This document shows positions 22,597 to 48,338 of a stretch of DNA of 64,000 nucleotides, in pieces. The notes under the pieces are model-generated. The model saw nothing but the letters and a program-made list of their open reading frames with translations. It searched no databases and was not told where the DNA came from. How positions within the stretch are numbered: position 1 is the stretch's first letter; the number at the start of each line of letters is the position of its first letter. The stretch spans positions 37,942 to 101,941 of the forward strand of contig JAFGMK010000006.1 in assembly GCA_016927565.1 (NCBI GenBank). The letters run 5' to 3'. The stretch comes from Minisyncoccota bacterium. Its GTDB lineage: Bacteria > Patescibacteriota > Microgenomatia > PFEM01 > JAFGMK01. The position numbers were made by a program, and so were the translations under genes.

Positions 22597-22636
22597 ACGA
22601 TCCCGGATCGTCTGCAGATTTCGATCCGGGATCGGG
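22597..22636. repeat. dispersed palindromic repeat, copy 1 (CGATCCCGGATCG-TCTGCAGATTT-CGATCCGGGATCG)
   Basis: Perfect 13-bp inverted arms around a palindromic PstI-like loop. The flanks (GATAAAGATAACG on the left, GCTCCGGA..GTCAAAGAA on the right) are shared with the other copies, so the full unit is ~75 bp. Confidence 0.8.
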
Positions 22637-22895
22637 GAAGCTCCGGATAGTCAAAGAACATGAGCAGTTACGTACTGGGTTGGCACCTGTCTCCGGAACG
22701 GCCAAGCCGGAATCGAACCTATCAATGGAAAATGTCAGTCAATTTTTCCTGGCTTTTGTTGCCGTGAATCGCCGCTGCCCTAAAACCACTTCTGACTAGG
22801 TTTATGGCAAGCTTATTTACCCCCCTCAATAGTGTATGGAAAATCTCGATCTTCTTCTTTTACCAACATGGAAAAAAATTTACGAAAACGGCCAG

Positions 22896-23336
22896 TTAAA
22901 TTATCCTTTTTTTAATCCTATGGCTAAAAAAATAGCCGGTCACCCCAACCGCCCCAGTTAAAAAACCCAAAGGGCAGACAATAGTTGAGGTTAGAAAAAA
23001 GGTAACATGAAGGGCTTCGGCGAAAAAATGAAGGATTTGGATTTTTTCAGTGATTATGGCTAAGGCATAAAGCAGATTGTGGAAAACGACGCCGGGGAAA
23101 AAAGCCGCCGCCGAAACCCCACTAAGAAGCAGGAATTTTTTTAGGCGATTTTTAAACTTTCTTCTTCTAATGACTATGATTAAGCCAAAACCCAAAAAGG
23201 AAAAAACCGCCAACGGCAGAAGAAACAAAAAAGTGCCTCGGAATAATTCTCTGATTGGTTCAAGAAAAAATTGCGCCACCCCAAAAATAAAACTCAAAAG
23301 CAACCACCAGAACAACCGCGGTATTTTTTGCTTCAT
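22896..23336 (-). CDS. small integral membrane protein (4 predicted TM helices)
   Basis: 146-aa hydrophobic ORF, 11 nt downstream of the 220-aa secreted-protein gene. Probably co-transcribed with it. Confidence 0.4.
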   Translation of the reverse strand: MKQKIPRLFWWLLLSFIFGVAQFFLEPIRELFRGTFLFLLPLAVFSFLGFGLIIVIRRRKFKNRLKKFLLLSGVSAAAFFPGVVFHNLLYALAIITEKIQILHFFAEALHVTFFLTSTIVCPLGFLTGAVGVTGYFFSHRIKKRII

Positions 23337-23347
23337 CTTAAAAAAGC

Positions 23348-24010
23348 TTAGCGAAACTGACCAAAGCCCGGGCCGACCGGCGTACGATATTGCAGGCCGT
23401 GACTACCGGCACAAGAATCATTCTCAACCTTTTGAATAACAGCAAATTCATCCCAGATTACCGGCCCAAGCTCCCGACGGTTTTTCTCATACCACATTCC
23501 ATTCTCTTTATAAGCGCCACTAGGCGCTGCTGCAATTTTGACAAAATAATTCCATTGGCAAGTCTCGCCGTCCTGTTCATACTCACCGGACTGATGGTTG
23601 GTCAACCAGGCACCGGATCCAACATAGCCGGCAAAACCATAATGACGGTCAAGCAAGCCATCACCATCACAATCTCTGTTTGAAAGCCAGGCGTCATTCC
23701 ACTTCATAGCCAGCCTGACGTCCTTATAAGGTTGACACCAGGCCGCATTCCGGTAGGAATCACAATAAAAACCATTGAATGAGCGGGCTTGGTAGTTATA
23801 ACCCCACCCGTCATAACCGGAAGTAATCGGATAACCGTCACTAGTCAAAAGATCCCCTTGTTGAATAGTTTTACAGGCAGTAAATTTTCCTAAAACCCTG
23901 GAAGGAACAGCCCGAGGCACAAGCGGCAGCAGGGCTACATTAAAAGCCAATACAATTCCGCCGACTACTAAAGCCACCGGCAAAACCGTATGTAAAATTT
24001 TATTTTCCAT
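23348..24010 (-). CDS. secreted or membrane-anchored Gly/Trp/Tyr/Asp/Cys-rich protein
   Basis: N-terminal TM/signal peptide (VLPVALVVGGIVLAFNVALLPLV). The mature part has about 8 Cys and DCDGDGLLD. Its GC-rich codon usage is atypical for the window. Confidence 0.45.
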   Translation of the reverse strand: MENKILHTVLPVALVVGGIVLAFNVALLPLVPRAVPSRVLGKFTACKTIQQGDLLTSDGYPITSGYDGWGYNYQARSFNGFYCDSYRNAAWCQPYKDVRLAMKWNDAWLSNRDCDGDGLLDRHYGFAGYVGSGAWLTNHQSGEYEQDGETCQWNYFVKIAAAPSGAYKENGMWYEKNRRELGPVIWDEFAVIQKVENDSCAGSHGLQYRTPVGPGFGQFR

Positions 24011-24160
24011 CCCCTTTCACCCCCTTTCTTTATCATTGCCTAATTCAAGGTAACAAACCTCAACGATGACTGTCAAGGCACACAATTAAACACCCATAAA
24101 AAAACCGCCTCTTAAAGCGGGCTTCCGAATTAATTCTTTTAGAAGCAAATTTTAAAAACT

Positions 24161-24244
24161 TTAAAGCAGCTCAAAGGCAACTGTTTTTTCCAAAGCCAGA
24201 TGCATTACCACCAAAGCCAAAAAAAAGAAAAGAGGAAATAAGAT
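24161..24244 (-). CDS. 27-aa hydrophobic peptide (MKKILFPLFFFLALVVMHLALGKNSCL)
   Basis: Strong SD GGAGGT 5 nt upstream of the ATG. Signal-peptide-like. Lies immediately upstream of the secreted-protein and membrane-protein genes. Very short, so it may not be a real gene. Confidence 0.25.
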   Translation of the reverse strand: MLFPLFFFLALVVMHLALEKTVAFELL

Positions 24245-24371
24245 TTTCTTCATCTTCGACCTCCAATTTTTGTTTTTTAAAGCTTTTCTTTTATACCACA
24301 ATCAACTGATTTTTAACAACTTCATTCTCCCGATCCCAACAAAAAAAAGGCCCTGATCCGAAAACAGTCTG

Positions 24372-24881: not shown

Positions 24882-25196
24882 AAAATTACCTTTCTTTTCC
24901 ATCCTATCAAAAAAGCCAAAGAACAGCCAGTCCCCAAGTCCTTCCCGGACTTGGGGCAAAAAGGAAATTTTCTGGCTATCATTTTATTTCCCCGGCGGCT
25001 TATTTTTCTTTTTATGGGCTATGCAAGTAGTACACACTTCTTTTCACCTCCTTTAAACTATTTTTCAATTTTTAACTAACTAAAGATAACAAAGGAAGTC
25101 TTCGAATTCTGTAAGCCAGCTAACATTATTATCAATCATCTTGGCTGTCTGAACTGCTCTTATTATCAAGACGAGCCTTCTCCTTTAGATATCTTC

Positions 25197-25234: not shown

Positions 25235-25798
25235 ATGGAAGACTCCCGTTTAAACAAGGTTCGCGATTTTTACAAAAATCACCACCGATTACCCTCTTAC
25301 TCGGAAATGCTAAGATTGTTTAAACTGGCTTCTAAGAATGCGATTTATAAAATTGTTAAAAAATGGCAGGAAACCGGCCTGGTAGAAAAAATCAACCATA
25401 AACTGGCTCCCACCAAAGATTTTTTCCGCCTGCCATTTTTTGGTTTGGTCAAGGCCGGCTTCCCCACCGGCGCTGACGAAGACCACCGCTTCTTAAGCCT
25501 GGAAGATTATTTAATCGATAAACCCCAAGCCTCTTTCTTACTAACGGTTGACGGCGATTCTCTCTCCGGCATCGGCATCTTACCGGGAGACTTGGCCATC
25601 ATCGAGAAAAGAACCGAAGCCCGGACAGAAGAGATTGTCTTAGCTTTAATCGACAATCATTGGAGCCTAAAAATTCTCCGGCGGCAAAACGGCCGGCTCC
25701 GGCTGGAATCAGCCAATGAAAAGTATCCCCCCCTCTACCCCAAAGAAGATTTACAGATCTTCGGAGTTTTAAAAGGAGTAATTAGAAAAATTAAATAA
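25235..25798 (+). CDS. lexA: LexA-like repressor (wHTH plus S24 peptidase)
   Basis: N-terminal wHTH. VKAG/FP carries the Ala-Gly cleavage site, GDSLSGIGI carries the Ser nucleophile, and LKILRR carries the Lys. Confidence 0.7.
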   Translation: MEDSRLNKVRDFYKNHHRLPSYSEMLRLFKLASKNAIYKIVKKWQETGLVEKINHKLAPTKDFFRLPFFGLVKAGFPTGADEDHRFLSLEDYLIDKPQASFLLTVDGDSLSGIGILPGDLAIIEKRTEARTEEIVLALIDNHWSLKILRRQNGRLRLESANEKYPPLYPKEDLQIFGVLKGVIRKIK

Positions 25799-25803
25799 AA
25801 TCC

Positions 25804-27036
25804 ATGTTTCAAATCCATCCCTGGCCCAACGCCATTCTTCATCTTGACGCTGACGCCTTCTTTGCCTCAGTGATGCAGGCCGTCAACCCGAATTTAAAAG
25901 GAAGAGCAGTGATTGTCGGCAGGGAAAGAGGCATCGCAACGGCAGTTTCTTATGAGGCTAGAGGATGGGGTGTTAAACGGGGAATGAGACTGAACGAGAT
26001 CAAAAGGACTTGCCCCCATTGCCTTTTGATAGACTCGGATTATGAACTTTATCAGCTTTTTTCCCAAAAAATATTCAAACTTTTAAGAGAATTTTCTCCT
26101 GCGATTGAAGAATATTCAATTGACGAAGGCTTTGCTGATCTTAAAGGCCTGAGACGGCCACTTCGGGCCAGTTACCGTCAAATCGGGCAAGAAATCAAAG
26201 AAAAAATCGAAAAATCACTGGGAATTACAGTTTCAGTCGGCATTTCTTTGACAAAATCGCTCGCTAAACTGGCTTCCTCTTTCCAAAAACCCTCCGGCCT
26301 GACCGTAGTTGACGGGTTAGGTCTGGAAAAATTCCTTTCTCAAATCCCTTTAAAAAAAGTTTGGGGAATCGGCGAACAAACCAGCGCCTACCTGGAGAAG
26401 CTGGGATTGATCAGCGCCCTGGATTTAGCCCTTAAACCGGAAAGTTTTATCAGCGCTTATTTGATTAAACCCCATCTTGAAATCTGGCATGAGCTTCGGG
26501 GAGAACAAGTTTACCTTTTAAACACCCACCCCAAAACAACCTATCAGAGTATCTTAAAAAGCGAGACTTTCCGGCCGGCCACTAATGAACCCCATCTGCT
26601 TTGGGCCAGATTGTTAAATAATATTGAAGCGGCCTTTACCAAGGCCCGGCACTATCAATACTCGGTTGGCCAGGTGTCTCTTTTTTTAAAGAGTCAGGAC
26701 TTTATTTATCATACCAGCCAAGTCCGGCTTCTGGAAAAAGCCGCTTATCCTTTTTTAATCAGAAAGGAATTAAAAAAAAGTTTTAACGGCCTTCTTTCCC
26801 GGCAAACTCTTTACCGGACTACCGGTTGTTGCTTATCAAATCTTCAAGATAACCGTCAGTCTCAATTGAGTTTTTTCCCCCCAAGTCAGGCCAAACTTAA
26901 TAAAGCAGTTAAATTTTATCCGCTATATGAAAACAAAAAAATTGATTTTGGCACTAGTCTTTTTGATCCTCAACTCGGAAAAAGAAGAAAAAAACAACCC
27001 CGGACCCGAATCCCTTTTTTATCTCTTCCCGCTTGA
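25804..27036 (+). CDS. Y-family DNA polymerase (DinB/UmuC-like)
   Basis: ILHLDADAFFASV is the Y-family catalytic motif. 410 aa. Starts 5 nt after the lexA stop, so the two form an operon. Confidence 0.8.
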   Translation: MFQIHPWPNAILHLDADAFFASVMQAVNPNLKGRAVIVGRERGIATAVSYEARGWGVKRGMRLNEIKRTCPHCLLIDSDYELYQLFSQKIFKLLREFSPAIEEYSIDEGFADLKGLRRPLRASYRQIGQEIKEKIEKSLGITVSVGISLTKSLAKLASSFQKPSGLTVVDGLGLEKFLSQIPLKKVWGIGEQTSAYLEKLGLISALDLALKPESFISAYLIKPHLEIWHELRGEQVYLLNTHPKTTYQSILKSETFRPATNEPHLLWARLLNNIEAAFTKARHYQYSVGQVSLFLKSQDFIYHTSQVRLLEKAAYPFLIRKELKKSFNGLLSRQTLYRTTGCCLSNLQDNRQSQLSFFPPSQAKLNKAVKFYPLYENKKIDFGTSLFDPQLGKRRKKQPRTRIPFLSLPA

Positions 27037-32041: not shown

Positions 32042-34345
32042 TCAATAAAGGTCAGCAAACAAAACAGCGCCGCGGGGATAAAAACCCAAAGTGATCTGAG
32101 GCGGATAAAGCGGCTCTTTAAAATAATAGCCATCAGCCCAAGCCTGGGGATTGTCCAAAAGTAAAGGGAAAAAAATATCCTCCGCCTGACCGGAAAAGTC
32201 AAAAAGTTTTTGGGAAATAAAGTCGGCCATAAGGCTATGGGAAACCCACCCTAAGCCCAAATCCTGATATTGGGTTAGCTTGAGGCCAATGAGAGTTCCA
32301 TTTTCATCTTTGGCTAAACTTTTTTGATAGGCCTGAGGATAAGCTTGGCGCAGAAGAGAAACAACATTGTCTAAAGCGGGGTGCTTAAGACCGGTCAGGG
32401 CCGGGTAAAAAAGCCCGGTTATGATAGCAAAACCCTGCTCCTCAATTCCGGAAATTGTCTTGTTTTCAAAAGCTATTTTTTCCTTGAACTCGGAATCAAG
32501 CGAAAGCGGAATCAGGCCGTATTTTTCAAAAGCGGCCTCCAGAGACCGGCTAATCAGTTCTGCCTGTTCACTAGCAGTCTGATAAAAATCTTCCCGATTA
32601 AAGGTTTTGAAAATTTCAAGCGCCGAAGTATAGGCCGCCAGTTGTTTTATACCCAGATAACTGCTGTCAGGGCCCTGTTTCAGGGCAGCGTTTCCGTCAT
32701 TATCATAAGTGGTTATTCCGATTCCCTCATCGGCAATGCCGTTATTATTAGTGTCTCTTTTAGCCAGAGAAACAATCAGCTCATTTAAAAAAGGCAATAA
32801 TTCCTTAATAAAATCCTGATCCTGAGATTGGCGCCAATACCAGAAAGTCAAAAGGATAAAATTACTGTTCTCTTCCACAGGCATGCCCGAGGTTTCCCAG
32901 CCCGGAATGCCGTATGCTTGAGTGTTTTTAAGCCGGAAACGGGAACCCAGATCATGAGGAATCACCACTCCCCAATCATCTTTTTTGGCCGCTTGCTGCC
33001 AGGAGTTTAGCTCTGACTTTAAAACCCAGGGGAAAAATAACCCTTCCAGAACAGCATAGTCATGAGCCACATCCAAAGTATTCAAATACTTAAAATGGCC
33101 TTCCCAGACAAACCAGTCAAAATCCGGGCAATCAGCCTCTTCGCAAACCAACCAAGTGTTGCCCAGATATGAATGAAAGGCTTGGGCCAACAGCCATTTC
33201 CGGCGGGGAGAAATTATCTGCCGGCCGACTTTGTTTTCGAAATTGATTGTCTTCGCTAAAATTTCTTCCTCCTCAACAACAGCAAAGCGGATCACCTCAT
33301 CAAGGTCGCCGAACCAACGATGATAGGCAAAAGTAAAGAGACGATGGACCGGATCGTCTTGGGTCAGAACCTTCCCGTCTAAAAAACCGGCATAAACCAG
33401 TCTAAGAGTGTCCGTTTCTCCGGGTTCAAGCTCAATCAACCATTCGAAACCGCCGCGCTTATTGGCAATAAAGGGTTTTATCTGATCCTGGTTAGACAAA
33501 ACAACCAAAGCCCGCCGGCCCTCCTTTCTTACCCCGTCCCGAAAGTAAACAGCTTTCAAACCGCCAGACAAACCTGCCTCTGTTGCCTGACTGAAGGAAG
33601 TTTTAAGACCTGCTGACTGCTTCTGAGCGGTTTTATTAGTCAAAGAAATCTGCAAATAAAAAAAGGGGGCAACATTCATTTTATTAGCCTCGTCCTGAAA
33701 AGATTCGGTCGGAGAAAAGGGAGAGATAATCTTTAGGCTAACCAGAGCGTCTTGACTGACAAAATCCGTCTGCTGGTAAGTCAAGCCCAAATCAACTGAA
33801 GTCACTGCAAACCGGCTGTTAGGCAAAATCGGAAAGAGTCGGACAGTCTCTTTTTCGTTTCTCAAGCTGAGGTCAAAACCAGTCTCTTTATCTTCAAAAG
33901 TTCCCAAAATGCCTGAATTTATCTTATTTTCAGAAAACAACCAATCAAAATTAAAACGCGAGCCAAAACGAGAATTCATTATCGCCAGGCAATTAGGCCG
34001 GGCTTGAATCCTGCCGTCAGCTAAGAATAAATTTTCGGGGTTTACCCGTTGAGGACAGACTGACGAAGCAATATCAAGAGGGAAACTGGAAAGAGTCAAG
34101 CAGGAAGGAATTTGGGCTGATTTTTTATATCTTATAAAAACTATGCCAAAAAGAATTGCCAAACCGGAAAAAAGCAAACCTAAAATGACGGCTATTTTCT
34201 GGATTCTTTCTTGATTTTCCGGCCAAAATTTCATAAACGGTGCTTTTTTAAAAAAAAGACTAAAAGGCCTCACGAGCCCCTTAGTCTTTTTTAAATTACA
34301 AAAACTTTTTATCTTATCGGGTGATTGTAATCGTTGCCAGCTCAC
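32042..34345 (-). CDS. large membrane-anchored exported protein of unknown function
   Basis: 767 aa with an N-terminal TM (IAVILGLLFSGLAILFGIVFI). No firm family. The start may be the internal ATG at 34234, since the long form overlaps the pilin gene's 3' end by 32 nt. Confidence 0.45.
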   Translation of the reverse strand: MSWQRLQSPDKIKSFCNLKKTKGLVRPFSLFFKKAPFMKFWPENQERIQKIAVILGLLFSGLAILFGIVFIRYKKSAQIPSCLTLSSFPLDIASSVCPQRVNPENLFLADGRIQARPNCLAIMNSRFGSRFNFDWLFSENKINSGILGTFEDKETGFDLSLRNEKETVRLFPILPNSRFAVTSVDLGLTYQQTDFVSQDALVSLKIISPFSPTESFQDEANKMNVAPFFYLQISLTNKTAQKQSAGLKTSFSQATEAGLSGGLKAVYFRDGVRKEGRRALVVLSNQDQIKPFIANKRGGFEWLIELEPGETDTLRLVYAGFLDGKVLTQDDPVHRLFTFAYHRWFGDLDEVIRFAVVEEEEILAKTINFENKVGRQIISPRRKWLLAQAFHSYLGNTWLVCEEADCPDFDWFVWEGHFKYLNTLDVAHDYAVLEGLFFPWVLKSELNSWQQAAKKDDWGVVIPHDLGSRFRLKNTQAYGIPGWETSGMPVEENSNFILLTFWYWRQSQDQDFIKELLPFLNELIVSLAKRDTNNNGIADEGIGITTYDNDGNAALKQGPDSSYLGIKQLAAYTSALEIFKTFNREDFYQTASEQAELISRSLEAAFEKYGLIPLSLDSEFKEKIAFENKTISGIEEQGFAIITGLFYPALTGLKHPALDNVVSLLRQAYPQAYQKSLAKDENGTLIGLKLTQYQDLGLGWVSHSLMADFISQKLFDFSGQAEDIFFPLLLDNPQAWADGYYFKEPLYPPQITLGFYPRGAVLFADLY

Positions 34346-34736
34346 CAGTGGCGCTAGCTGTCAACCTCCCGTCAGCTTCCTCAAACAAAACATAACCGGT
34401 GGTAGCAGCGGTTCCGCTACTCGGATCCATAGGAATAGCCGGAATAAAGTCAGTCACCAGCTCGCCTTCCAAATTCAAGCCATCGGTACCGATATCTTGA
34501 GGAGCAGTCGTAATTCCGGTGGGAAAACTACCATCATTCGAAACAGCAAATTGGTGACAAGCATTCAAGACCTGATAAATATCATTTCGGCGCTGAGTGT
34601 CTCTGGCCTGGGCAAAATTCCGGGCCGGATTAACGGCAACCAGAACAATCGCCGCCAAAATACCGATAACGCCGATCACTACCAGAAGTTCGATTAGAGT
34701 GAAGCCCCTAATTTTTTTCACTTTGGGCAGTTTCAT
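34314..34736 (-). CDS. type IV pilin (prepilin-type N-terminal cleavage/methylation domain)
   Basis: MKLPKVKKIRG/FTLIELLVVIGVIGILAAIV is a class III signal peptide with GFTLIE. Confidence 0.8.
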   Translation of the reverse strand: MKLPKVKKIRGFTLIELLVVIGVIGILAAIVLVAVNPARNFAQARDTQRRNDIYQVLNACHQFAVSNDGSFPTGITTAPQDIGTDGLNLEGELVTDFIPAIPMDPSSGTAATTGYVLFEEADGRLTASATGELATITITR

Positions 34737-34871
34737 TTTTTCACCCCCCTTCTTTTTTGAGAAATTATTTTTTGATTCCGAATATGATCTCAGCTTAGCA
34801 GAGAAATAAGAAACTTGTCAATAAGCCTCTTTTCTCTGTGTTTACTCAGTTTCTTTAATAAATCGCGGCCA

Positions 34872-34910
34872 TTCGATCCCGGATCGAAATCTGCAGTCCA
34901 TCCGGAACCG
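34872..34910. repeat. dispersed palindromic repeat, copy 2 (reverse orientation, second arm degenerate)
   Basis: TTCGATCCCGGATCGAAATCTGCAGTCCATCCGGAACCG. Located in the 5' region of the pilin gene. Confidence 0.65.
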
Positions 34911-34963
34911 TTGTTCTCGTCAAAAAGTGTGAGCAGCTGCCTTTTCTCTTTATTCTTTTCAGC

Positions 34964-35173
34964 TTATTCACTCGAATAGCCCAAAGCCCGGGCCGCTCTT
35001 TTAACTGAATCAACATCCAAATAAGGCCGATTGGCTTCAACTAACACCGGATTGACTCTGAAAGCCTGAGACAAACGGTCATAGATATTTTTTCCGGAAA
35101 AGACAAAACCGCCCAAAAGAACCAGAATCAGCAGTAATTTTATTAAATTGGCAGCCTTGATTCCTTTCATCAA
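34964..35173 (-). CDS. small single-TM membrane protein in the pilus operon
   Basis: 69 aa with one TM helix. Its start overlaps the stop of the PilO-like gene. Confidence 0.35.
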   Translation of the reverse strand: MMKGIKAANLIKLLLILVLLGGFVFSGKNIYDRLSQAFRVNPVLVEANRPYLDVDSVKRAARALGYSSE

Positions 35174-35754
35174 CTTTCCCCCTGAAAAAAAGGAGTATTA
35201 ACAAAAATTCTGGCATGCAAAATCATTTCCGTCTCTTCCTGATCGGTTTTGGAAAAATCAATCAGGCTTAACTTCAATAAGTAGGGAAGTCCGGCCAAAT
35301 CAGTCAAAAACCTTCGGAGATTGGCAAAACCACCCTTCGCCTCAAGAGAAAAATCAATGTAGGAACGGCCCAACTCATCAAGAATCGGCTGATCAGTCGC
35401 AAACTGAAATACACTCAAGGAAACATCCCGGCTGATTCCCTTGAGCTCTTTAACAAAACGGACAATTCCGGCCTCGTCAGGTAATGAGTTTTCAATTATT
35501 TCAGTTTCTTCCGCAACCAGGCTAAAATTTTGAGAAATCACTTTCAGACTGGTTTCCTGTTCTTTAAGAGCAATCAGCTGACTCCGGCTTATTTCAGCTT
35601 GACTGCCGAAAGAAGACAACCGGCCAATCAGCCAGAAAGTTCCGCCTAAAAAAAGGGCGGAAAAGAATACTGCCAGCGAAAGATGAAGCCAGGGATAAAA
35701 TTGATGCTGTTTTTTGGAAACCGCTTTGATTTTTTTGTTTTTTTCCTTCTCCAT
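35170..35754 (-). CDS. PilO-like pilus assembly protein (N-terminal TM plus coiled coil)
   Basis: Bitopic architecture typical of PilO/PilN-family proteins. Sits in the pilMN-pilO position. Confidence 0.45.
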   Translation of the reverse strand: MEKEKNKKIKAVSKKQHQFYPWLHLSLAVFFSALFLGGTFWLIGRLSSFGSQAEISRSQLIALKEQETSLKVISQNFSLVAEETEIIENSLPDEAGIVRFVKELKGISRDVSLSVFQFATDQPILDELGRSYIDFSLEAKGGFANLRRFLTDLAGLPYLLKLSLIDFSKTDQEETEMILHARIFVNTPFFQGES

Positions 35755-35764: not shown

Positions 35765-37171
35765 TTATTTTATCGCCAAAAAAGAAATTGTAAAACTGAT
35801 GCTTTCTTCCTTTTCCAAACTTGAAAGCGGAATTCTCACCTGAGAAAGTTGACCCGTCTGTTCAAGCCTTTGTCTGAAATTGATCAACTGATCTTGATGA
35901 TCGGCAAAACCATTAATCAGGTATTCTCCTCTGGTAAAATCTATTGACCAATGCTGAAGATCAATTCCGGCGGGGGCGGCCGATTTAACCACTTCAATCA
36001 AAGGAAGCAATTCCTGCTGAGAAGCAGTCAATGCCAAAATCTGGCTAGCCTTGATATTGATCATTTTGGCCCGGACAGCAAGCTGATCCATTTGAGGAGT
36101 CAAAAGGGCCTGGACTTCAATCAATTCCCCTTTGATTTTCTGAAGTTCAAAATAAACTTTGGCAGTAGCAACGCCAAAACTAAAAAGGATTAAAAAAAGC
36201 CCGAAAAGCCAAAGCTTAACCCAGTTAGAAAGGATCCGGCTTTTTTCATTCCGGTCATAAACTCCTTGAATTCGGGGAGGGATCAGATTAATTGTTTTCT
36301 CATCAAGCGGAGCGGCAACGTCTTTCCTGGACAAAGAAACGGTAATGGCCAATTCTGCCGGCTTAATCGGAATCAAACCGGCTTTGATTTGAAACTTTTG
36401 CGAAACTTCGGCCGCCAAAGTTTCGCTCGATCCCTGACCGCAGAACAGAATACCGGCAATCCGGGTTTTCTTTTTGGCCTGAACTTGTTTTTTTTGATAA
36501 AAGGCTAACAAGTCCTGAATACTGGTTAAAAGCTTTCCCTGCTTGTCTTGAGAACCAAAATTAATGGTTGAACTAAGTTTTATCTCTCCTCGAGGGCCGA
36601 CGATTACTAAAGTAGCTTCACCTTCATCAACTTTAATCGCCAAACGATCATCTTTGCTCTTTCCCGTTAACCGCGCCAAACTCAAAGAAGTGGGTTCAAA
36701 AGCAACCGGTTCAAAACCCAAAAACTCCAATACTTGAGCATATCCCTCAACCAATTTGGCTGGCAAAGCCATAACTAAAACCTGGCTGGATTTCCTATCC
36801 TGCTCTAAAAGCATCCAATCGAGATAAACGGCCTCCAGCGATAAAGGCAACAAAGGTTCGGACTGCCAACGGACCGCGTCATCAAGCTCAGCCGGAGAAA
36901 GAGGCGGCAAACTAAGAACCCGGCTAAAAGCCGCCACTTCCGGTAAACCGACAACCACAAATTTACTTTTTAATTTTTTAATAAAAAGAAACTTCTTAAG
37001 ATATGTTAAAAGCTCTTTTGGTTTTTTTACCCATCCCCTGACAATTATTCCCGGTGCCAAAGCCAGGCTGGAAGCAATTACCGGCTGGCCTTTTTGATCA
37101 GCCTGAACCAAAAAAACCTTTTGGTCAGAAAAAGTCAGGGCAAAGTAGTTTTTTTTCCGTTTAAAAAGCAT
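35765..37171 (-). CDS. PilM-PilN fusion protein (actin-like ATPase domain plus a C-terminal TM/periplasmic PilN-like region)
   Basis: The N-terminal ~330 aa has the PilM/FtsA-like fold pattern. A TM helix (LWLFGLFLILFSFGV) follows, then a ~130-aa tail. Confidence 0.6.
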   Translation of the reverse strand: MLFKRKKNYFALTFSDQKVFLVQADQKGQPVIASSLALAPGIIVRGWVKKPKELLTYLKKFLFIKKLKSKFVVVGLPEVAAFSRVLSLPPLSPAELDDAVRWQSEPLLPLSLEAVYLDWMLLEQDRKSSQVLVMALPAKLVEGYAQVLEFLGFEPVAFEPTSLSLARLTGKSKDDRLAIKVDEGEATLVIVGPRGEIKLSSTINFGSQDKQGKLLTSIQDLLAFYQKKQVQAKKKTRIAGILFCGQGSSETLAAEVSQKFQIKAGLIPIKPAELAITVSLSRKDVAAPLDEKTINLIPPRIQGVYDRNEKSRILSNWVKLWLFGLFLILFSFGVATAKVYFELQKIKGELIEVQALLTPQMDQLAVRAKMINIKASQILALTASQQELLPLIEVVKSAAPAGIDLQHWSIDFTRGEYLINGFADHQDQLINFRQRLEQTGQLSQVRIPLSSLEKEESISFTISFLAIK

Positions 37172-39622: not shown

Positions 39623-40231
39623 TTAGATTTTTTCCACCGTCACCACTCCTAATTTATTAATGCTTATCTTTCTTTTCTGGTTTCCCCGCCGGTCAGTCAA
39701 AATAAAATAATTGTTCACCGGATCAAAGTTGCGGACCTGTCCGGTAATTTTTTCAAAAACACAATCATCTGAAGAAAGGCTGATATCATTTATCGCTAAT
39801 TCTGGGGCTAAATCAAATTTTTGATTGAGCGGATTATCGGGATTAAAGCCGATTCCTCCAAAAAGAGTGTAGCGGGCACTTTCAAAATGGACACCGAAAT
39901 TTAAAGCCGTCGGCTGGCCATAAGAATAACCGGCCAGAGTTTTGACCCTGGCCTGGAAAAGACAGGCAGTTATTTTCTTTGCCTCAGCTTCAATTCTGTC
40001 TTGCCGGGCAAAACCGCTCATCACCACCGTTCCCAAACCGAAAAGGACTGATAAAACACCAATAACAACAATTATCTCGATTAGAGTCAGACCGGCTTCC
40101 TTTTTATAATTGCTCACATTCTTTGATAAAGATAACGGTCTCGGATCGTCTGCAGATTTCGATCCGGGATCGAATAACAGCTCGGAATCGTTATTTTTTT
40201 CAAAGAGAACAGACAGTTTCTCTTTTTTCAT
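39623..40231 (-). CDS. type IV pilin; the real start is probably the internal GTG at 40117
   Basis: ...VSNYKKEAG/LTLIEIIVVIGVLSVLFGL. The ATG-initiated ORF gives an implausible 42-aa leader, and that leader contains the dispersed palindromic repeat. A GTG start would give the 9-aa leader MSNYKKEAG. Confidence 0.65.
   Translation of the reverse strand: MKKEKLSVLFEKNNDSELLFDPGSKSADDPRPLSLSKNVSNYKKEAGLTLIEIIVVIGVLSVLFGLGTVVMSGFARQDRIEAEAKKITACLFQARVKTLAGYSYGQPTALNFGVHFESARYTLFGGIGFNPDNPLNQKFDLAPELAINDISLSSDDCVFEKITGQVRNFDPVNNYFILTDRRGNQKRKISINKLGVVTVEKI
40134..40172. repeat. dispersed palindromic repeat, copy 3
   Basis: GGTCTCGGATCGTCTGCAGATTTCGATCCGGGATCG, with GATAAAGATAACG on the left and GCTCGGAATCG..CAAAGAGAA on the right. 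Lies just upstream of the likely pilin start. Confidence 0.75.
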
Positions 40232-40374
40232 CTATAAAAAATGTCAAAAGTCAATTGTTAAATTATCTCTTGATTTAATTAATTTTAAAAAGCGGCAATT
40301 TTCTTTTCTTGAGAAAATTGTAAATTGACTCTGATTATCCCGGAAACGGGCTACATGTTTTTCATCGCATCATT

Positions 40375-41607
40375 TCAATTTGACGATAGGCTTTTGGATA
40401 AACTTCCGACAAAAGAATAAATCGGAGCAATCACCGAAATCACCATCACCCCAACGCCAATCCCGATTAACAACATCATGATCGGCTCAATTACGCTGGT
40501 TAAGGTCTTTAAGGCGTCGCTCACTTCTTCTTCATAAAACCGCGCCAGATCAAGTAAAAGTTTGTCTAAAGCCCCGGTTTTCTCCCCGGTTGAAACCATC
40601 CGCACCATAATTGAGGGAAAAGTTTTTGTTTTTTTTAAAACCTGAGAAAGAGCGATTCCTTTTTCTACTTCCTCGGCAAAAACATTGCCAATGTTTTTAT
40701 ACTGGGGTAAATTGAGAGTGCTGGAAGCTACCCTCAAGGCATCAATAATCGGCACTCCGCTTTTTAAAAGAGTCGAGAGAGTCCGGTTAAATCTTCCCAG
40801 TGCCAGCTTAATCAAAAGCTGGCCGAAAAATGGAATCCGGGCCAGCAAGTTACCTAAAAGCTTCTTCCCCGCCGGTCTGGTCAGGCCCGAAACCAAACCA
40901 GCGATCAAAATGAAAAGACCACCGAAAAACAAAAGCAGATTCTGAGAAATAAAAAGACCGCTTCTTAAAATAAAAAGCGTATAAGCCGGCAGGGGAAATT
41001 CACGGTGAAGATTTAAAAGAATCGGGGCAATCTTCGGCACGACAAAGACTAACATTGCCACCCCCAAGCCTCCGCTGGTTAAAACAATAACCGTCGGATA
41101 AGCCAAGGTGCTTTTAACTTTGCTGTTGAGTTCATAATCAGAATAAAGTTGATTTCCCAGATACTCGAAGGTCTTGCCCAAAGTGCCGCTTTTTTCCCCG
41201 GCTTTAACCAAAGTTAAAAAAATTTCATCAAAAACTGCCGAATGTTTGGCAAAAGCCTCAGACAAGGGTTGACCGTTTTGCAAAGCCGCCTGAAGATCAT
41301 CCAGGACTTTTCTCATGGTCGGATTTTTAGTTTCCGCAGAAATTGCCTCCACCGCTTCAGTAAGAGCCAAACCGGCATTGATCATTGTCGCCAAATAGCG
41401 GCAAAGATCAGCCTTATCAATCAGGCTGATTTTTTTCCGGGTCAGAAAGGATTGCTTCTCAGTCTCTCCACCGACTTCTTTGACAAAAAGGGGCGAAAGC
41501 TGGTCAGCCTTTAATTGAGCTCCGGCTTCTTTTTTACTTGCCGCTACCAGAACCCCTTCTTTGATTTTGCCTTTTTCTTCTTTAGCTTTATATTTAAAAA
41601 CAGCCAT
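40375..41607 (-). CDS. pilC: type IV pilus/T2SS platform protein PilC/GspF
   Basis: 410 aa with a duplicated GspF domain and three TM segments. Confidence 0.85.
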   Translation of the reverse strand: MAVFKYKAKEEKGKIKEGVLVAASKKEAGAQLKADQLSPLFVKEVGGETEKQSFLTRKKISLIDKADLCRYLATMINAGLALTEAVEAISAETKNPTMRKVLDDLQAALQNGQPLSEAFAKHSAVFDEIFLTLVKAGEKSGTLGKTFEYLGNQLYSDYELNSKVKSTLAYPTVIVLTSGGLGVAMLVFVVPKIAPILLNLHREFPLPAYTLFILRSGLFISQNLLLFFGGLFILIAGLVSGLTRPAGKKLLGNLLARIPFFGQLLIKLALGRFNRTLSTLLKSGVPIIDALRVASSTLNLPQYKNIGNVFAEEVEKGIALSQVLKKTKTFPSIMVRMVSTGEKTGALDKLLLDLARFYEEEVSDALKTLTSVIEPIMMLLIGIGVGVMVISVIAPIYSFVGSLSKSLSSN

Positions 41608-41629: not shown

Positions 41630-43318
41630 TTATTCCTGTACCATTCTTAAGATTTCTTCAATCGTTGTAATCCCGGCGGCCACTTTATTCAGACCATCAG
41701 CGACCATACCGATCATCCCATTGGCTAAAGCCGCTTTTCTGATTTCATCACTGGAAACTTTTTTCAAGATCAGCTGCCTGATTTCAGCGTTAGTTTCTAA
41801 AATCTCAAAAATGCCAACGCGACCCCGATAACCCTTGCCGCCGCACTCTTCGCAACCCTTACCCCGATAGAAATCCTGACTCATTTTCTTTTGACCCGAA
41901 AGTTTTTTGACTAAACCCAGAGTTTTATCGTCCGGCTCAAATCGCTGGATACAAGCCGAACAAATCCTTCTGACCAATCTTTGCGCAATTACCAGATTCA
42001 CCGTCGAAGCAACCAAAAAATTTTCGGCTCCCATATCCAAAAGGCGGGGAACCGCTCCCGGAGCGTCATTAGTGTGGAGAGTGGACAGAACCAGATGTCC
42101 GGTCAGAGCCGAGTTAATTGCCATTTCAACCGTTTCCGGATCACGAATTTCGCCTACCATAATAATATCCGGGTCGTGTCTGACCAAAGCCCGGATACCG
42201 GCGGCAAAAGAAAGGCCGGTTTCCGGATTAGCCTGAATTTGAGTTATCCGGGGCATACTATATTCAATCGGATCCTCGACAGTGCAAATTTTAACTTCAG
42301 TCGAATTAATCATATTTAAAAGACTGTAAAGCGTTGTCGTTTTGCCGGAACCGGTTGGGCCGGTCACTAAAATCATTCCGTGGGGCTTTTTGATATTTTC
42401 TTTGAGAATTTCAAAATTTTTCCCTGATAAACCCAACTCTTCCAAACTTAAAGGCCGGGCCGATTCAAAAAGAAGCCGCATAACGATATTTTCCCCGTAA
42501 AAAGCCGGAATAATAGAAACTCTCAGGGAAATAAAACCTCCACCCAGGCCGAATTTGAACCGGCCATCCTGAGGCAACCGGTGTTCGTCAATTTTAAGAT
42601 GGGTCAAAACCTTCACCCGGGCCACAATCGCCGAATGAATCTCCACCGGTAAAGAAATAATATCTCTCAGCATACCGTCGATTCTATAACGGATAATCAA
42701 CTCGTTTTCCAAAAGCTCAATATGGATATCTGAAGCCCGTTCGGCAATGGCGTATTCCAGAAGCGTATCCAGGATTCTGACCACCGGAACATCAACGGCT
42801 GCTTTAACTAAGTTGTTACCGGTCGCCCCTTTGGCTTTAGTTTTTTTAACATTCTCAGTAATTATTTTCTCAAATTCTTTCCGGATATTTTTTTTGTACT
42901 GGGAAAGGCCTTTGACTATTGCTTCAGAAGTAGCGAAAAAAGGCTTTACCGCTAAACCGGACTGGCGCTTAACCAGCTCAATTGCCTCAAAATCCTCAGG
43001 ATCCTCCATCGCCAAGAAGAGCTCTTGGTCATTTTTCCCAAAAGGCAGGATATGAAAAGACCGGGCCGATTTTTCCGGAAGAAGACTTAGAATCTCAAGA
43101 GGGATTACCTTATGAGCCAAAGAAACAAAAGGAACCTGGTAATGTTCGGCCACCAATTGACCAAGAGACTCCTCATTGATCAAGCCCCGGAAAATTAAGA
43201 CATCAACCAGGGGCTTCTCCAATTCCTCGGCAATTTTAGCCGCCTTGTTGAAATCTTCCTCACCGACAAAACCTGCCTTTAAAACAATCTCTTTTAACTT
43301 TTCTGGCAGAATTTTCAC
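41630..43318 (-). CDS. pilB: type IV pilus assembly ATPase PilB/GspE
   Basis: N-terminal GSPII domain. Walker A GPTGSGKTTTLYS. Asp and His boxes. C-terminal tetracysteine CxxC...CxxC. Confidence 0.9.
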   Translation of the reverse strand: MKILPEKLKEIVLKAGFVGEEDFNKAAKIAEELEKPLVDVLIFRGLINEESLGQLVAEHYQVPFVSLAHKVIPLEILSLLPEKSARSFHILPFGKNDQELFLAMEDPEDFEAIELVKRQSGLAVKPFFATSEAIVKGLSQYKKNIRKEFEKIITENVKKTKAKGATGNNLVKAAVDVPVVRILDTLLEYAIAERASDIHIELLENELIIRYRIDGMLRDIISLPVEIHSAIVARVKVLTHLKIDEHRLPQDGRFKFGLGGGFISLRVSIIPAFYGENIVMRLLFESARPLSLEELGLSGKNFEILKENIKKPHGMILVTGPTGSGKTTTLYSLLNMINSTEVKICTVEDPIEYSMPRITQIQANPETGLSFAAGIRALVRHDPDIIMVGEIRDPETVEMAINSALTGHLVLSTLHTNDAPGAVPRLLDMGAENFLVASTVNLVIAQRLVRRICSACIQRFEPDDKTLGLVKKLSGQKKMSQDFYRGKGCEECGGKGYRGRVGIFEILETNAEIRQLILKKVSSDEIRKAALANGMIGMVADGLNKVAAGITTIEEILRMVQE

Positions 43319-44764: not shown

Positions 44765-45580
44765 GCCATTTAAAACTTCTATACACCCCTGGGGTGTCTT
44801 AAGTTGGCACCCCCGGGAAATTTTTAGTTAGTCTTCCATGAACAGATGCTTTATCTCCTCTAATCTTCTTTGGTAATCAGCTTGATCCAGAACAAATTTT
44901 CGGTAATCATTTCTATTTCTGGAACGATCAAGAATTACTCCCTGGTCACAAAGCCCAAGTTCTTTTTTTCCAAGATACTCGGGAAAAGAAGAATATGGGT
45001 ATTCCGTCAGCTGATTTCTATCTTTTAACAAATAAGCGGAAAAGGGGTTTAGATGGATATATCTTGAAAGATGGAGAAGTTGGGCTTCGGTTTCCACTCT
45101 GACTGCCTTAAATCTTCCCTGAAACAAAGGGCCGATTCTTTTCCTTTTAGTGTTAAAATATTTGGTATAGCTGTTGGCTATCTGACTAATAAATTCTTTA
45201 ATTCCGTCTTCCCTCTCTTGTTTTAAAAGAAAGTGAAAATGATTAGGCATTAAGCAAAAGGCAATAATTTTCACTAAATAATTTTGCTTTTCTTCTACCT
45301 TCTCCCAAAGGAGTTGTCTTTCCTTTTTAGGCAAAAGCAAAAACTTAGAATATCTTAAGGGAAAATCGGATCGACGATAAAAATCAATTACTTTTAACAT
45401 CCGCTTATAGTCCCGGGTGCTAAGGAAAATAGGCTGAAAGGCCACGCCCCGATTAAAAACATGATAAAACTCACCGGTTACCAGGGGTATTCTTGGGTTG
45501 GTCATATACTTCTTAAGTTATGCCAAAAATCCTGAGGTGTCAATAGAAATACACCCCAGGGGTGTATATTTCAGGGATTG
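44765..45580. mobile_element. IS200/IS605-family or RAYT-like element: a Y1 HUH transposase gene flanked by inverted 18-nt identical palindromes
   Basis: TATACACCCCTGGGGTGT occurs on the plus strand at 44779-44796. Its reverse complement occurs at 45551-45568. Each is itself a palindromic hairpin. Confidence 0.6.
44828..45505 (-). CDS. IS200/IS605-family Y1 (HUH) transposase, REP-associated tyrosine transposase-like
   Basis: YHVFNRG, the HUH motif MPNHFHFLL, a catalytic Tyr region SYTKYFN, and GPLFQGRF...YIHLNPF. 225 aa is long for IS200 TnpA and closer to RAYT size. Confidence 0.7.
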   Translation of the reverse strand: MTNPRIPLVTGEFYHVFNRGVAFQPIFLSTRDYKRMLKVIDFYRRSDFPLRYSKFLLLPKKERQLLWEKVEEKQNYLVKIIAFCLMPNHFHFLLKQEREDGIKEFISQIANSYTKYFNTKRKRIGPLFQGRFKAVRVETEAQLLHLSRYIHLNPFSAYLLKDRNQLTEYPYSSFPEYLGKKELGLCDQGVILDRSRNRNDYRKFVLDQADYQRRLEEIKHLFMED

Positions 45581-45633: not shown

Positions 45634-47079
45634 ATGCACACTTACAGCGTTTCCCTAGCTCAAAAAATCCCTGAAGAGCAACAAGCCCGCAATCAAGCAC
45701 AAGAATTAGTCAACAAACTTCAAAAAGCAGAAGAACAAATCAAACTCCAATTAACGGATTTGTCAGAAAAAAACCGGGTTTTAGCCGCGCTAAGACGATT
45801 AAACCTAATCATTATGGAATCTTTGGAGATGGAAAGTTTGTGCCAAAAAATTGTTGACACTCTTTCTGTGGAGTTAAAGTGCAGCTTTGGCCTGATCGGC
45901 ATAATTGATGAAACCAGAAATCGATTTTATTTCAAAGCGATTAATAAAGATTCGCGCCTGGCCCGGCTTTTTCGGCAAAAGCATATCAAAATTGAAGAGA
46001 GCTATCTCTCACTTGAAGAAAAAAATAATTCAATTAATCAAAGCATCAGTCTTAAAAAGAAAATTTCGGCTAAAAAAATCGCTGACATTCTTTGTCCTCT
46101 TTTCCCCCGAAAAAAACTCCAAGGCTGGCAAAAGATAGTAAAAATTTCAACTTGCCGGATTTATCCGATTATTTCCAAAACCAATGTTTTGGGAGCGATG
46201 GTGTTCGGCTGGAAAAAAGCGAAACACAAAATTTCCCCGGAAGAGAAAGATTTGATGAAAAATGTGATTGACCAAACCAGCATTGCCCTGGACAATACCA
46301 TTCTTTACCAAAAACTAAAACGGAGCGTTAGTCAACTCAAGCAAGCCAATCTGAAACTTCAGGATTTAGACCGGATGAAGAATGAATTTGTTTCAATTGC
46401 ATCTCACGAACTCAGAACCCCGATGACTTCGGTCAACAATTATATTTGGATGGTGCTTCGCGGCAAGGGCGGGCAGATTACCACCAGACAACGCTTTTAT
46501 CTGGACCGGGCCGCGACCTCAACCCAAAGACTGATCAATCTGGTTGAAGACATGCTGACCGTTTCCCGAATTGAAGGCGGCAAACTGGAAATCAACCTTA
46601 AGCCGGGGAGTATTTTAAAAATCGGCAAAAATGTCATTGAAGAACTAAAGCCCAAAGCCAGAGAAAAGAAGATCAAATTATTTCTGGAATTACCAAAAAA
46701 GGAACTTCCCCTGGCCTTAATCGACCAAGAAAAGATTAAAGAAGTTTTCATCAATTTGGTTGACAATGCCCTTAAATTCACTCCGGTCGGGGGCCAAGTA
46801 AAAGTCACTTTCAATCTCAAAGGCAAAATGATCCTAATCCAAATTACCGATACCGGCCGAGGCATTCCTAAAAATGATATTCCTAAACTTTTCAAAAAAT
46901 TCGGCCGGCTGGACCGTTCTTTTGTCACTATCGCCGAAACCGGCGGCACCGGCCTGGGCCTTTATATCTGCAAACAAATCATCGATCTTCACCGAGGCCG
47001 AATCGGGGTCAGGTCGATTCCGGACAAAGGGTCTTGTTTTTACTTTAATATAAAAATTGCAGAGGAGGTGAAAAAATGA
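45634..47079 (+). CDS. sensor histidine kinase (GAF-like N-terminus plus HisKA plus HATPase_c)
   Basis: H-box IASHELRTPMTSV and a G-box GGTGLGLYICKQII. Overlaps the downstream receiver gene (ATGA). Confidence 0.8.
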   Translation: MHTYSVSLAQKIPEEQQARNQAQELVNKLQKAEEQIKLQLTDLSEKNRVLAALRRLNLIIMESLEMESLCQKIVDTLSVELKCSFGLIGIIDETRNRFYFKAINKDSRLARLFRQKHIKIEESYLSLEEKNNSINQSISLKKKISAKKIADILCPLFPRKKLQGWQKIVKISTCRIYPIISKTNVLGAMVFGWKKAKHKISPEEKDLMKNVIDQTSIALDNTILYQKLKRSVSQLKQANLKLQDLDRMKNEFVSIASHELRTPMTSVNNYIWMVLRGKGGQITTRQRFYLDRAATSTQRLINLVEDMLTVSRIEGGKLEINLKPGSILKIGKNVIEELKPKAREKKIKLFLELPKKELPLALIDQEKIKEVFINLVDNALKFTPVGGQVKVTFNLKGKMILIQITDTGRGIPKNDIPKLFKKFGRLDRSFVTIAETGGTGLGLYICKQIIDLHRGRIGVRSIPDKGSCFYFNIKIAEEVKK

Positions 47080-47444
47080 AAAAAATATTATTGGTTGAGG
47101 ACGAACAATTCTTAAGTGACTTATATGCTGAAGTTTTAAAAGCGGAAGGCTTTTCAGTTGAAACGGCTCACGACGGCCAAAAAGGCTATGAGACCATGAA
47201 AAAAAGCAGCTTTGACCTGGTTCTCCTGGATATCATGCTGCCAAAAATGGACGGAATTGATATTTTGAACCGCCTGAAAAAGGAAAAAAAGCTAAAGCTC
47301 AATAAACACATTATTTTACTGACCAACCTTTCCGGAGAAGCGGTCTTAAGAAAAAAGGGGCATATCGAAGTTGACGAATATCTTATCAAAAGCTCTCTTA
47401 CGCCTGATATTTTAGTAGAAAAAGTGAAAGAATATCTGAAGTAG
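47076..47444 (+). CDS. stand-alone receiver-domain protein
   Basis: KILLVEDEQFL...DLVLLDIMLPKMDG. 122 aa with no output domain. Confidence 0.8.
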   Translation: MKKILLVEDEQFLSDLYAEVLKAEGFSVETAHDGQKGYETMKKSSFDLVLLDIMLPKMDGIDILNRLKKEKKLKLNKHIILLTNLSGEAVLRKKGHIEVDEYLIKSSLTPDILVEKVKEYLK

Positions 47445-47461
47445 CCGTTAAGCGTCGGCTG

Positions 47462-47839
47462 TCAGTTCTCGGAGGATAAAAAAACCTCCACTTCAGCTAA
47501 AATCTCATCCGGTTTTAGAGCCTGTTTCATTAAATAGCCATTGGCCCCCAAACGCATGGCCCTTTTGATAAATTTATCCTGATTCAAAACCGTCAGCATG
47601 ACAATTTTTTGATTGCTGATCGGAGGACTAAGTTGTTTCAGCTGAAAAAGAAGGGAAATGCCGTCTTTTTTGGGCAGCATGATGTCAAGCAGAATTAGAT
47701 CATAACCCCCCCGGGAAGCCAAATCAAACCCGGCTTGGCCGTCGCTGGCTGTTTCAACCTGATAACCTTGCTGTTTGAAAAGAAGTTCGTAAAGTTCCCT
47801 CGTAAAACGATCATCTTCAACCAGAAGAAGTTTATACAT
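47462..47839 (-). CDS. stand-alone receiver-domain protein (tandem paralogue 1)
   Basis: MYKLLLVEDDRFTRELY...DLILLDIMLPKKDG. Start taken at the ATG at 47839. The ORF track starts it at a GTG at 47863. Confidence 0.7.
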   Translation of the reverse strand: MYKLLLVEDDRFTRELYELLFKQQGYQVETASDGQAGFDLASRGGYDLILLDIMLPKKDGISLLFQLKQLSPPISNQKIVMLTVLNQDKFIKRAMRLGANGYLMKQALKPDEILAEVEVFLSSEN

Positions 47840-47859
47840 TTTAAAAAAGATGATAACAA

Positions 47860-48234
47860 TCACTCCGTCTTTAAAAAGACGGCTATCTCAGCCAAAACCT
47901 CATCCGGCCTCAGGGCTGATTTCATCAGATAGCCATGAGCTCCCATTCGCAAGGCGTTTTTAATAAACTCATCCTGATTCAAAACCGTCAGCATGACAAT
48001 TTTTTTATTTTTTTTCTTAGCCGGAATTTCTTTTATTTTTCTCAGAAAAGTCAAACCGTCAATCTTGGGCATAATGATATCCAGCAGGATTAGATCAAAC
48101 CCGCCTTCAATTGCCTTAGCAAGACCGGCTGCCCCGTCTTCAGCTACTTCCAAATCATAACCCTCTCCTTTTAAAAGAGTTTCATATAGCTCGCGGGTGA
48201 AACGATCGTCCTCAATTAAAAGTATCCTGACCAT
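47860..48234 (-). CDS. stand-alone receiver-domain protein (tandem paralogue 2)
   Basis: MVRILLIEDDRFTRELY...DLILLDIIMPKIDG. Roughly half identical to its neighbour by eye. Start taken at the ATG at 48234. The ORF track uses a TTG at 48270. Confidence 0.7.
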   Translation of the reverse strand: MVRILLIEDDRFTRELYETLLKGEGYDLEVAEDGAAGLAKAIEGGFDLILLDIIMPKIDGLTFLRKIKEIPAKKKNKKIVMLTVLNQDEFIKNALRMGAHGYLMKSALRPDEVLAEIAVFLKTE

Positions 48235-48301
48235 TAAATTTAATATAACATTCTTTAGAAAGCCGATCAAGGTAAATTACTCGCACTCTTTAACAAAGAT
48301 A

Positions 48302-48338
48302 ACGATTCCGGATCGTCTGCAGATTTTGATCCGGGATC
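48302..48338. repeat. dispersed palindromic repeat, copy 4
   Basis: CGATTCCGGATCGTCTGCAGATTTTGATCCGGGATCA, with AAAGATAACG on the left and GCCTGGAATTGTCAAAGAA on the right. Confidence 0.75.

Follow-up and report, generated by a model that had tools for sequence, protein, structure and literature searches.

The subject of this analysis is a dispersed palindromic repeat in a 64,000-nucleotide stretch of the Minisyncoccota bacterium assembly GCA_016927565.1 (contig JAFGMK010000006.1). This 64-kb stretch was the DNA analysed; it is called the window below, and copy counts refer to it. [quoted passage not shown] The reading direction assigned to the element is called the F orientation, in which its core reads CGATCCCGGATCG-TCTGCAGATTT-CGATCCGGGATCG. 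The copies and relics are as follows.

Copy 1, 22572..22672, plus strand (F on plus), profile E = 2.9e-28; both 13-bp arms perfect (22598-22610 and 22622-22634), with TCTGCAGATTT as the loop between them; right terminal repeat at 22651-22666, left terminal repeat missing.
Copy 2, 34838..34938, minus strand (F on minus), profile E = 3.1e-28; first arm decayed to CGGTTCCGGATGG.
Copy 3, 40109..40219, plus strand (F on plus, reverse to the pilin gene), profile E = 4.8e-25; arms at 40136-40148 and 40160-40172, with a T-run insertion of 9 nt.
Copy 4, 48276..48375, plus strand (F on plus), profile E = 4.3e-30.
Relic, 58464..58533, minus strand, weak profile match (E = 0.005); second arm TGATCCCGGATCC retained, first arm degraded.
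Relic, 11938..11975, minus strand, weak profile match (E = 0.17); two arm remnants with a 12-nt spacer.

The core is common to all copies and far above chance. When up to two mismatches are allowed, the 13-mer CGATCCCGGATCG occurs 17 times on both strands against 0.87 expected, a count that was equalled in none of 100 shuffles. A profile hidden Markov model built from the four copies found the full copies again with E = 4e-30 to 5e-25, and a repeat finder placed the copies in its families D3 and D5 and in the inverted pairs I1-I3. Identity between copies is 78–84% (divergence of 16–22%). An earlier sequence-only reading of this DNA had described such a family, with a 13-bp stem around a CTGCAG-containing loop, and rereading of the copies, the 13-mer count and the profile search all indicate that the family is real. 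The four full copies were found at the positions that it gave, within 1–2 nt, and its partial arms near 11941-11985 and 58481-58500 were recovered by the profile as the two weak relics (E = 0.17 and 0.005, respectively). Its unit size of ~75 bp has to be enlarged, since the conserved unit is ~100–111 bp.

The copies are also no artefact of assembly. In an independent Logan assembly of the same sample (SRR13394437), copies 2 and 4 are identical base for base, and a 17.6-kb contig starts within the core of copy 3; judging from the stated length of this contig, its far end, which was not itself read, would be expected in the core of copy 1. Since de Bruijn assemblies break at true repeats, contig breaks in repeat cores together with the exact copies 2 and 4 argue that the copies exist in the genome.

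In the F orientation, the element runs from a left end, TGCTCACATTCTTTGA-TAAAGATAA, through the core to a right end, GAATGAGCTCCGGAATTG-TCAAAGAAACTGAGTAAA. It is an imperfect palindrome over its full length: reverse-strand self-matches span the whole profile model, and the element is 74–81% identical to its own reverse complement. Each 13-nt arm (CGATCC-N-GGATCG) is itself dyad-symmetric, and the two boxes lie 24 bp apart from centre to centre. Imperfect terminal inverted repeats (TIRs) of ~17 nt, TRCTCA-N2-3-TTCTTTGA, complete the structure; with at most two mismatches, this motif turns up in copy 1 at the right end and in copies 2 and 3 at the left. RNA folding predicted the central 13-bp hairpin in both orientations and, for copies 2, 3 and 4, an extended hairpin that pairs the ends as well, in at least one orientation each (z-scores of the predicted folds, -2 to -4). 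The element carries no transposase gene, and every frame gives short repeat-derived peptides at most. An open frame across all four copies was considered as a meaningful feature and rejected, given that three of the six frames are largely open across the core; such a frame is nothing unusual for a 100-nt repeat of moderate GC content.

No similarity to any described family was detected in Rfam, in plasmid and phage collections or in scans of public contigs. With Rfam 15, no family reached gathering score anywhere in the window, and around copy 1 a threshold of E up to 1 yielded nothing either. Public genome and metagenome contigs, scanned for exact 22-mers, returned chance coding matches only (PADFDPGS in Bacteroidia proteins), a degenerate twin-arm pattern had zero matches in viral contigs, and the element had zero matches in plasmid and phage collections. 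The concatenated open frames of the four copies, compared with a database of 5.8 billion proteins, gave nothing at E up to 1. The window contains no tRNA gene.

The sequence-only reading had proposed a check for target-site duplications, and direct repeats were found at copies 2 and 4, as listed here.

Copy 2, upstream-gene side, 34939..34949, minus strand, AGAGAAAAGGC (also read as AGAGAAAAG-GC).
Copy 2, promoter side, 34825..34837, minus strand, AGAGAAAAGAGGC, 3 nt before the -35 box TTGACA (34816-34821).
Copy 4, 48263..48275, plus strand, CCGATCAAGGTAA; its reverse complement, TTACCTTGATCGG, holds the -35 box at work in the response-regulator promoter.
Copy 4, 48376..48388, plus strand, CCAATCAAGATAA, the duplicated, now orphan -35 box, beside the TTGGCA box of the divergent promoter.

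At both copies the flanks of ~13 bp match at 11 of 13 positions. Among 2000 random flank pairs from the window, 32 were as good as those of copy 2 (1.6%) and 23 as good as those of copy 4 (1.2%). The two halves of each duplication differ by ~15%. Because the direct repeats of copies 2 and 4 are unlike each other, they represent target sequence and not sequence of the element. At copy 4, one duplicate of the -35 box is joined to the spacer and -10 box, and the other to the -35 box of the divergent promoter; the distance of 7 nt between the orphan duplicate and the divergent -35 box is the same in one relative (locus L005). A target duplication at copy 3 was rejected, since its A-rich flanks (GATGAAAAAAGAG and TATAAAAAGGAAG) match at 8 of 13 positions by manual count and are not significant in the flank test.

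We also compared the window with the syntenic loci of relatives, namely seven genomes found through PilC homologues of 64–73% identity and represented by eight loci (roughly 100 kb). The window is assigned to a metagenome-assembled genome labelled Candidatus Pacebacteria on the basis of a PilC with 100% identity. Three of the copies lie in or beside a type IV pilus cluster, next to which two-component genes and a RAYT-like transposase gene are found. The genes that matter here are the following.

34314..34736, minus strand, major pilin gene, downstream of copy 2; promoter and ribosome-binding site conserved in four relatives.
35170-35754, pilO, followed by a 69-aa gene.
35765-37171, pilM/N.
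From 40231/40117 down to 37186, minor pilins.
39623..40231, minus strand, minor pilin gene with copy 3 in its 5' end, the first minor pilin after pilC.
40375-41607, pilC.
41630-43318, pilB.

Copy 2 follows the stop codon of the 69-aa gene and comes before the -35 box in the conserved promoter of the major pilin, copy 3 lies at the junction of pilC and the first minor pilin, and copy 4 lies between the divergent promoters of a receiver-only response regulator (47860-48234, minus strand) and a 91-aa gene (48428-48703, plus strand). The relatives keep the gene order pilB-pilC-minor pilins-pilMNO-major pilin, and neither the motif nor the profile found the element in any of the eight loci. Their spacers are shorter: 83–108 nt from the 69-aa gene to the major pilin versus 228 nt in the window, 89–96 nt upstream of the response regulator versus ~194 nt, and 1–61 nt from pilC to the minor pilin versus 257 nt. 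For copies 2 and 4, the difference is about the length of the element. Moreover, the relatives have one copy of the response-regulator target sequence, and two of them (L007 and L012) have one stretch similar to the copy 2 target right before the -35 box. The proposed look at presence and absence between strains is thus answered in part: the element is missing from the orthologous sites of seven relatives, all of them distant (PilC 64–73% identical).

The promoters themselves are conserved outside the element. Promoter, Shine-Dalgarno sequence and start of the major pilin gene (TTGACAAG..TGCTAAGCTG..GGGGGTGAAAAAATG, also given as TTGACAAG..TGCTAAGCTG..GGGGGTGAAAAAATGAAACTGCCC) are almost invariant in five aligned genomes, and copy 2 ends 16 nt ahead of the -35 box. 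Likewise, the response-regulator promoter, CTTGATC-17-TATATT with a TG (CTTGATC..TGTTATATT), is conserved across genomes and lies outside copy 4. The conserved regulatory sequence therefore excludes the element, which is extra DNA in this lineage. Taken together, the direct repeats and the shorter spacers with a single target in the relatives point to insertions with target-site duplication, and not to conserved operators or RNA motifs. The sequence-only reading had offered several options, namely a mobile hairpin of the MITE or REP type, a regulatory or terminator RNA common to the copies, and a site of recombination. Of these, a MITE-like element is the one that fits the direct repeats at two copies, the absent element and shorter sites in seven relatives, and the promoters outside it.

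Copy 3 stands apart in that it lies within an open reading frame (ORF). It follows the ATG at 40231, precedes the prepilin cleavage motif G|LTLIE and leaves the frame intact, with no stop codon. The N-terminus of this ORF reads MKKE-[38 aa]-KKEAG|LTLIE, so that the leader is 47 aa long from the ATG, compared with 9 aa from a GTG at 40117. Copies 2 and 3 had been placed just upstream of two major pilins, which is right for copy 2, while the gene at copy 3 encodes a minor pilin and has the element inside its 5' end. The idea that the repeat accounts for the long ATG-initiated leader is correct. The proposal that the GTG is the likely start fares less well. This codon lies within the terminal repeat of the element, and the same place reads GTGAGCAG in copy 2 and, in diverged form, GCGAGTAA in copy 4; since the terminal repeat is shared, the GTG came with the element. 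Leaders in the relatives read MKKNTG, MNKNSG, MSREKG, MMQVKKEATG, MNFRSSG and MLKRKIVKPAG. Set beside the first three of these, the ATG at 40231, which is followed by MKKE, appears to be the start codon of ancestral type. The predicted fold encloses the GTG within the long hairpin. At present, the cell may make the 47-aa leader or restart at the GTG. Besides the element, ~140 nt of extra AT-rich spacer (40232-40374) separate the pilC stop codon from this ATG, where the relatives have 1–61 nt, and this spacer holds promoter-like hexamers, TTTAAA-16-GATAAT, at 40289-40262.

If the family is indeed MITE-like, the element ends would have been bound by a transposase that mobilised the element in trans and whose gene lies at another place in the genome or has since disappeared. 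This enzyme would have cut the target with a stagger of ~13 bp, and repair of the gaps would have given the flanking direct repeats. Certain DDE families, IS4 and ISAs1 for instance, typically leave duplications of this length, which may serve as a lead. Copies would then have survived at sites where, in a compact genome, little damage follows from an insertion. Such sites may be the position right upstream of the major-pilin -35 box, the gap from which the response-regulator and 91-aa gene promoters diverge, two other intergenic spacers and, for copy 3, a presumably dispensable leader-peptide region of the minor prepilin, where the frame is still open. The divergence of 16–22% between copies, together with that of ~15% between duplication halves, suggests one old burst that is now decaying. 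We infer the time of activity from these values, and the type of transposase and any effect of the hairpins on neighbouring genes are likewise matters of inference.

Several points weigh against a MITE-like origin. Significant direct repeats are present at only two of the four copies, copy 3 being not significant and copy 1 having no left end. It should be noted that the 13-nt test window was picked after seeing the data, which makes the individual p-values given above somewhat optimistic; the evidence from the relatives is independent of this choice. Matching of the TIRs is imperfect, with ~12–14 of 17 positions between copies and only ~9–13 of 17–19, down to 9–10 of 17, within a copy. A cognate autonomous element or DDE transposase is absent from the 64-kb window, and copy number (four copies and two relics) is known for the window alone. 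The absence of the element is seen in relatives at a protein divergence of at least 27%, so recent mobility is not demonstrated. Finally, 9 of the 10 transition differences in the stem leave G.U pairs on the F strand and one on the other (binomial p ~0.01, by hand arithmetic), a strand bias that the neutral decay of dead copies does not predict. As copies lie on both genome strands, replication bias is no obvious cause; the bias may reflect chance, or else selection that acted on the hairpin of one strand while the master copies were active.

The same features were weighed under other explanations. The repeat could be a shared cis-regulatory module, in which the dyad-symmetric 13-bp boxes are operators for a dimeric regulator of pilus and competence genes, either as an original module or as a co-opted MITE. 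The self-palindromic arms are suggestive of such operators, and in copy 4 both ends of the second arm are altered (TGATCC.GGATCA) in a way that keeps its own dyad and breaks its pairing with the first arm. The neighbours also invite this reading: the intact copies adjoin the major pilin, the minor-pilin operon, the receiver-only response regulator by the pilus cluster and a 5' fragment of comM, and one relic adjoins comM itself. This set of 'competence-related' neighbours was, however, defined post hoc, and local transposition could cluster copies too. Moreover, the boxes are missing from the orthologous promoters of the seven relatives even though these promoters are strongly conserved, they stand at varying distances and in varying orientations to promoters, the major pilin, as the most important gene, has a decayed arm 1, and no candidate regulator was identified. 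We therefore regard a regulatory module as unlikely. A particular form of it, in which a MITE has been co-opted as a portable cassette whose boxes bind one dimeric regulator and wire the major pilin, the minor-pilin operon, the response regulator and comM into one regulon, with the in-frame copy adding a long leader encoded by the element, appears quite improbable.

The hairpin could instead function as RNA in pilus transcripts, where it might serve intrinsic termination or attenuation, or processing by RNase III. Among MITEs, hairpins that are targets of RNase III or act as terminators are known (PMC10969869). Here, the 13-bp stem forms whichever way the element is read, and the substitutions in it keep G.U pairs on one strand. 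In the reverse orientation, the hairpin is followed by a U-rich run (UUAUCUUUAUC), and this orientation places copy 3 between pilC and the minor pilin and copy 1 after a two-gene operon. These are, however, the only two suitably placed copies. The F orientation has no U-tract, and a terminator scan did not call the hairpin, whose loop is 11 nt. Copies 2 and 4 lie upstream of promoters and outside the transcripts of the adjacent genes, copy 4 being between divergent promoters and in the transcript of neither gene, and at copy 3, the F strand, on which the G.U pairs are kept, runs antisense to the genes. The copies are oriented in mixed ways to the gene beside them (copy 2 forward, copies 3 and 4 reverse). 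With neither an Rfam match nor conservation in the relatives, a shared regulatory or terminator RNA, as the sequence-only reading had allowed, is highly improbable. As to mobile hairpins of another type, paired palindromes may be recognised as single-stranded DNA hairpins and spread by a transposase of the Y1/HUH type known as RAYT (repetitive extragenic palindrome (REP)-associated tyrosine transposase). A RAYT-like gene (44828-45505; Pfam Y1_Tnp, E = 2.3e-9) lies in the same pilus and two-component region, the element joins two short palindromes in a single long hairpin, and G.T/G.U pairing is kept in 9 of 10 stem transitions on one strand, as selection on a strand-specific single-stranded hairpin would leave it. 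The gene is, however, bracketed by a different perfect palindrome, ACACCCCWGGGGTGT (44783-44797 and 45551-45565), which is found nowhere else in the window, as the sequence-only reading had also held in separating the two. In the window, no RAYT gene carries the repeat as its own, and insertion of the element is not free of duplication: copies 2 and 4 have target duplications of ~13 bp, which Y1/IS200-type transposition is not known to make. The window also holds only 4–6 copies of the element. Spread by a RAYT-type enzyme is accordingly improbable.

Two further ideas on the arms were rejected. A role as DNA-uptake sequence does not hold, as the 13-mer occurs only inside elements and its density is far too low. 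Avoidance of restriction sites, which the four GATC and one PstI site of the element had brought to mind, does not hold either, as GATC and CTGCAG occur at expected frequencies in the window.

Other features of the surroundings are recorded here. The two receiver-only response-regulator paralogues (47462-47863 and 47860-48270) are in tandem, overlap by 4 nt and share ~72% nucleotide identity over 234 nt; relatives have one response-regulator gene at this position. The -10 box (TGTTATATT) of the response-regulator promoter ends only ~7 nt before the likely ATG at 48234 (window 48232-48270), as it does similarly in L007 and L005, which suggests a leaderless or nearly leaderless mRNA. The TTG at 48270, which is the start of the listed ORF, is the -35 box of this promoter. 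At the copy 4 junction, L007 has a small GC-rich palindrome, CACCCCAGGGGGTG..CCCTGGGTG (~5775-5830), in the gap that separates the response-regulator promoter from the divergent one of the 91-aa gene, and at the copy 3 junction, L012 (~5560-5590, equal to L013 ~4720-4750) has another, CCCCGGGCGGGG, in the spacer that follows pilC and precedes the minor pilin. In these spacers, hairpin elements seem to accumulate that differ from one lineage to the next. The perfect 15-bp palindromes around the RAYT-like gene read ACACCCCTGGGGTGT and ACACCCCAGGGGTGT, and this gene is inserted between two-component genes beside the pilus cluster.

Relic 58464-58533 falls between two ABC-transporter genes, and relic 11938-11975 lies immediately 3' of comM. 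A two-gene operon ends ahead of copy 1, which abuts the outermost (22447-22560) of four repeats of the comM 5' end. These four repeats consist of the first ~21 codons of comM (11995-13524, minus strand) and its TGCTATCAT promoter, and their boundary, at GTTGAGGTT, is sharp; they lie as follows.

comM 5'-end repeats, 13465-13578, 16174-16287, 21464-21577 and 22447-22560 (plus 16056-16170 and 21345-21459).

The segments between these repeats contain two NUDIX genes, an HD-domain gene, a gene for a 1368-aa protein and a SUFU-like gene, with no integrase. The arrangement resembles a series of islands that integrated in tandem at the 5' end of comM, or a set of cargo genes driven by copies of its promoter and leader. 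Elsewhere in the window (25235-27036), an S24 peptidase gene (LexA/UmuD-like) is directly followed by one for a Y-family DNA polymerase (IMS domains), forming an umuDC-like pair.

Small mobile repeats are hardly described in the candidate phyla radiation, and a literature search for MITEs in connection with Patescibacteria turned up just two incidental mentions. For annotation, the element accounts for the implausible length of a pilin leader and points to the start codon that is likely to be ancestral, and it allows the real conserved promoters to be separated out within the upstream regions of the pilin and response-regulator genes. It also accounts for breaks in short-read assemblies of this genome. 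If the family is abundant, it may serve as a strain marker and as a place to look for the mobilising transposase. How such elements work is seen no differently for it: this is an ordinary kind of element in a little-studied lineage and of modest general interest.

Compared with known systems, the element shares with REP doublets that form hairpins (REPINs) and accompany a RAYT the build of two short palindromes that make a longer hairpin, and a RAYT-like gene in the region; it differs in that this gene is bracketed by another palindrome and in its target duplications. Rickettsia palindromic elements are ~100–150 bp long and often lie in frame within protein-coding genes (PMC10969869). Copy 3 is similar, an in-frame stretch free of stop codons that separates the ATG at 40231 from the prepilin cleavage site; here, however, only one of six copies is inside an ORF, and the alternative GTG start inside the element could bypass the inserted codons.

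Correia elements (Correia repeat enclosed elements, CREE) of Neisseria are likewise palindromes of ~100–150 bp with inverted-repeat ends, typically located just upstream of genes, and their transcripts fold into hairpins with a possible influence on expression. The duplicated target of a Correia element is a TA dinucleotide, and the element contains promoters and a site for integration host factor (IHF). The present element, in contrast, has a duplication of ~13 bp, the working promoters next to it are ancestral and lie outside it, and there is no sequence similarity.

The closest likeness is to prokaryotic MITEs, which are shorter than 500 bp, have TIRs of 4–30 bp, direct repeats that fade with age and a stable stem-loop, and are intergenic (PMC10969869). 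Here, we found units of 100–111 bp without transposase, imperfect TIRs, direct repeats at two copies and absence from the relatives' sites. The centre, a GC-rich doublet of self-palindromic 13-mers, is different from that of known MITEs, as is the lack of a partner insertion sequence in the window, and the direct repeats are longer than those of QMITE2 (~13 bp versus 7–9 bp). Thus, the family itself is new and the kind of element is already known: like Chunjie of Geobacter and QMITE1/2 of Coxiella (PMC10969869), it is small, non-coding and multicopy with a stable stem-loop, has imperfect TIRs, direct repeats at some copies and decayed or truncated relics, and is mostly intergenic near promoters.

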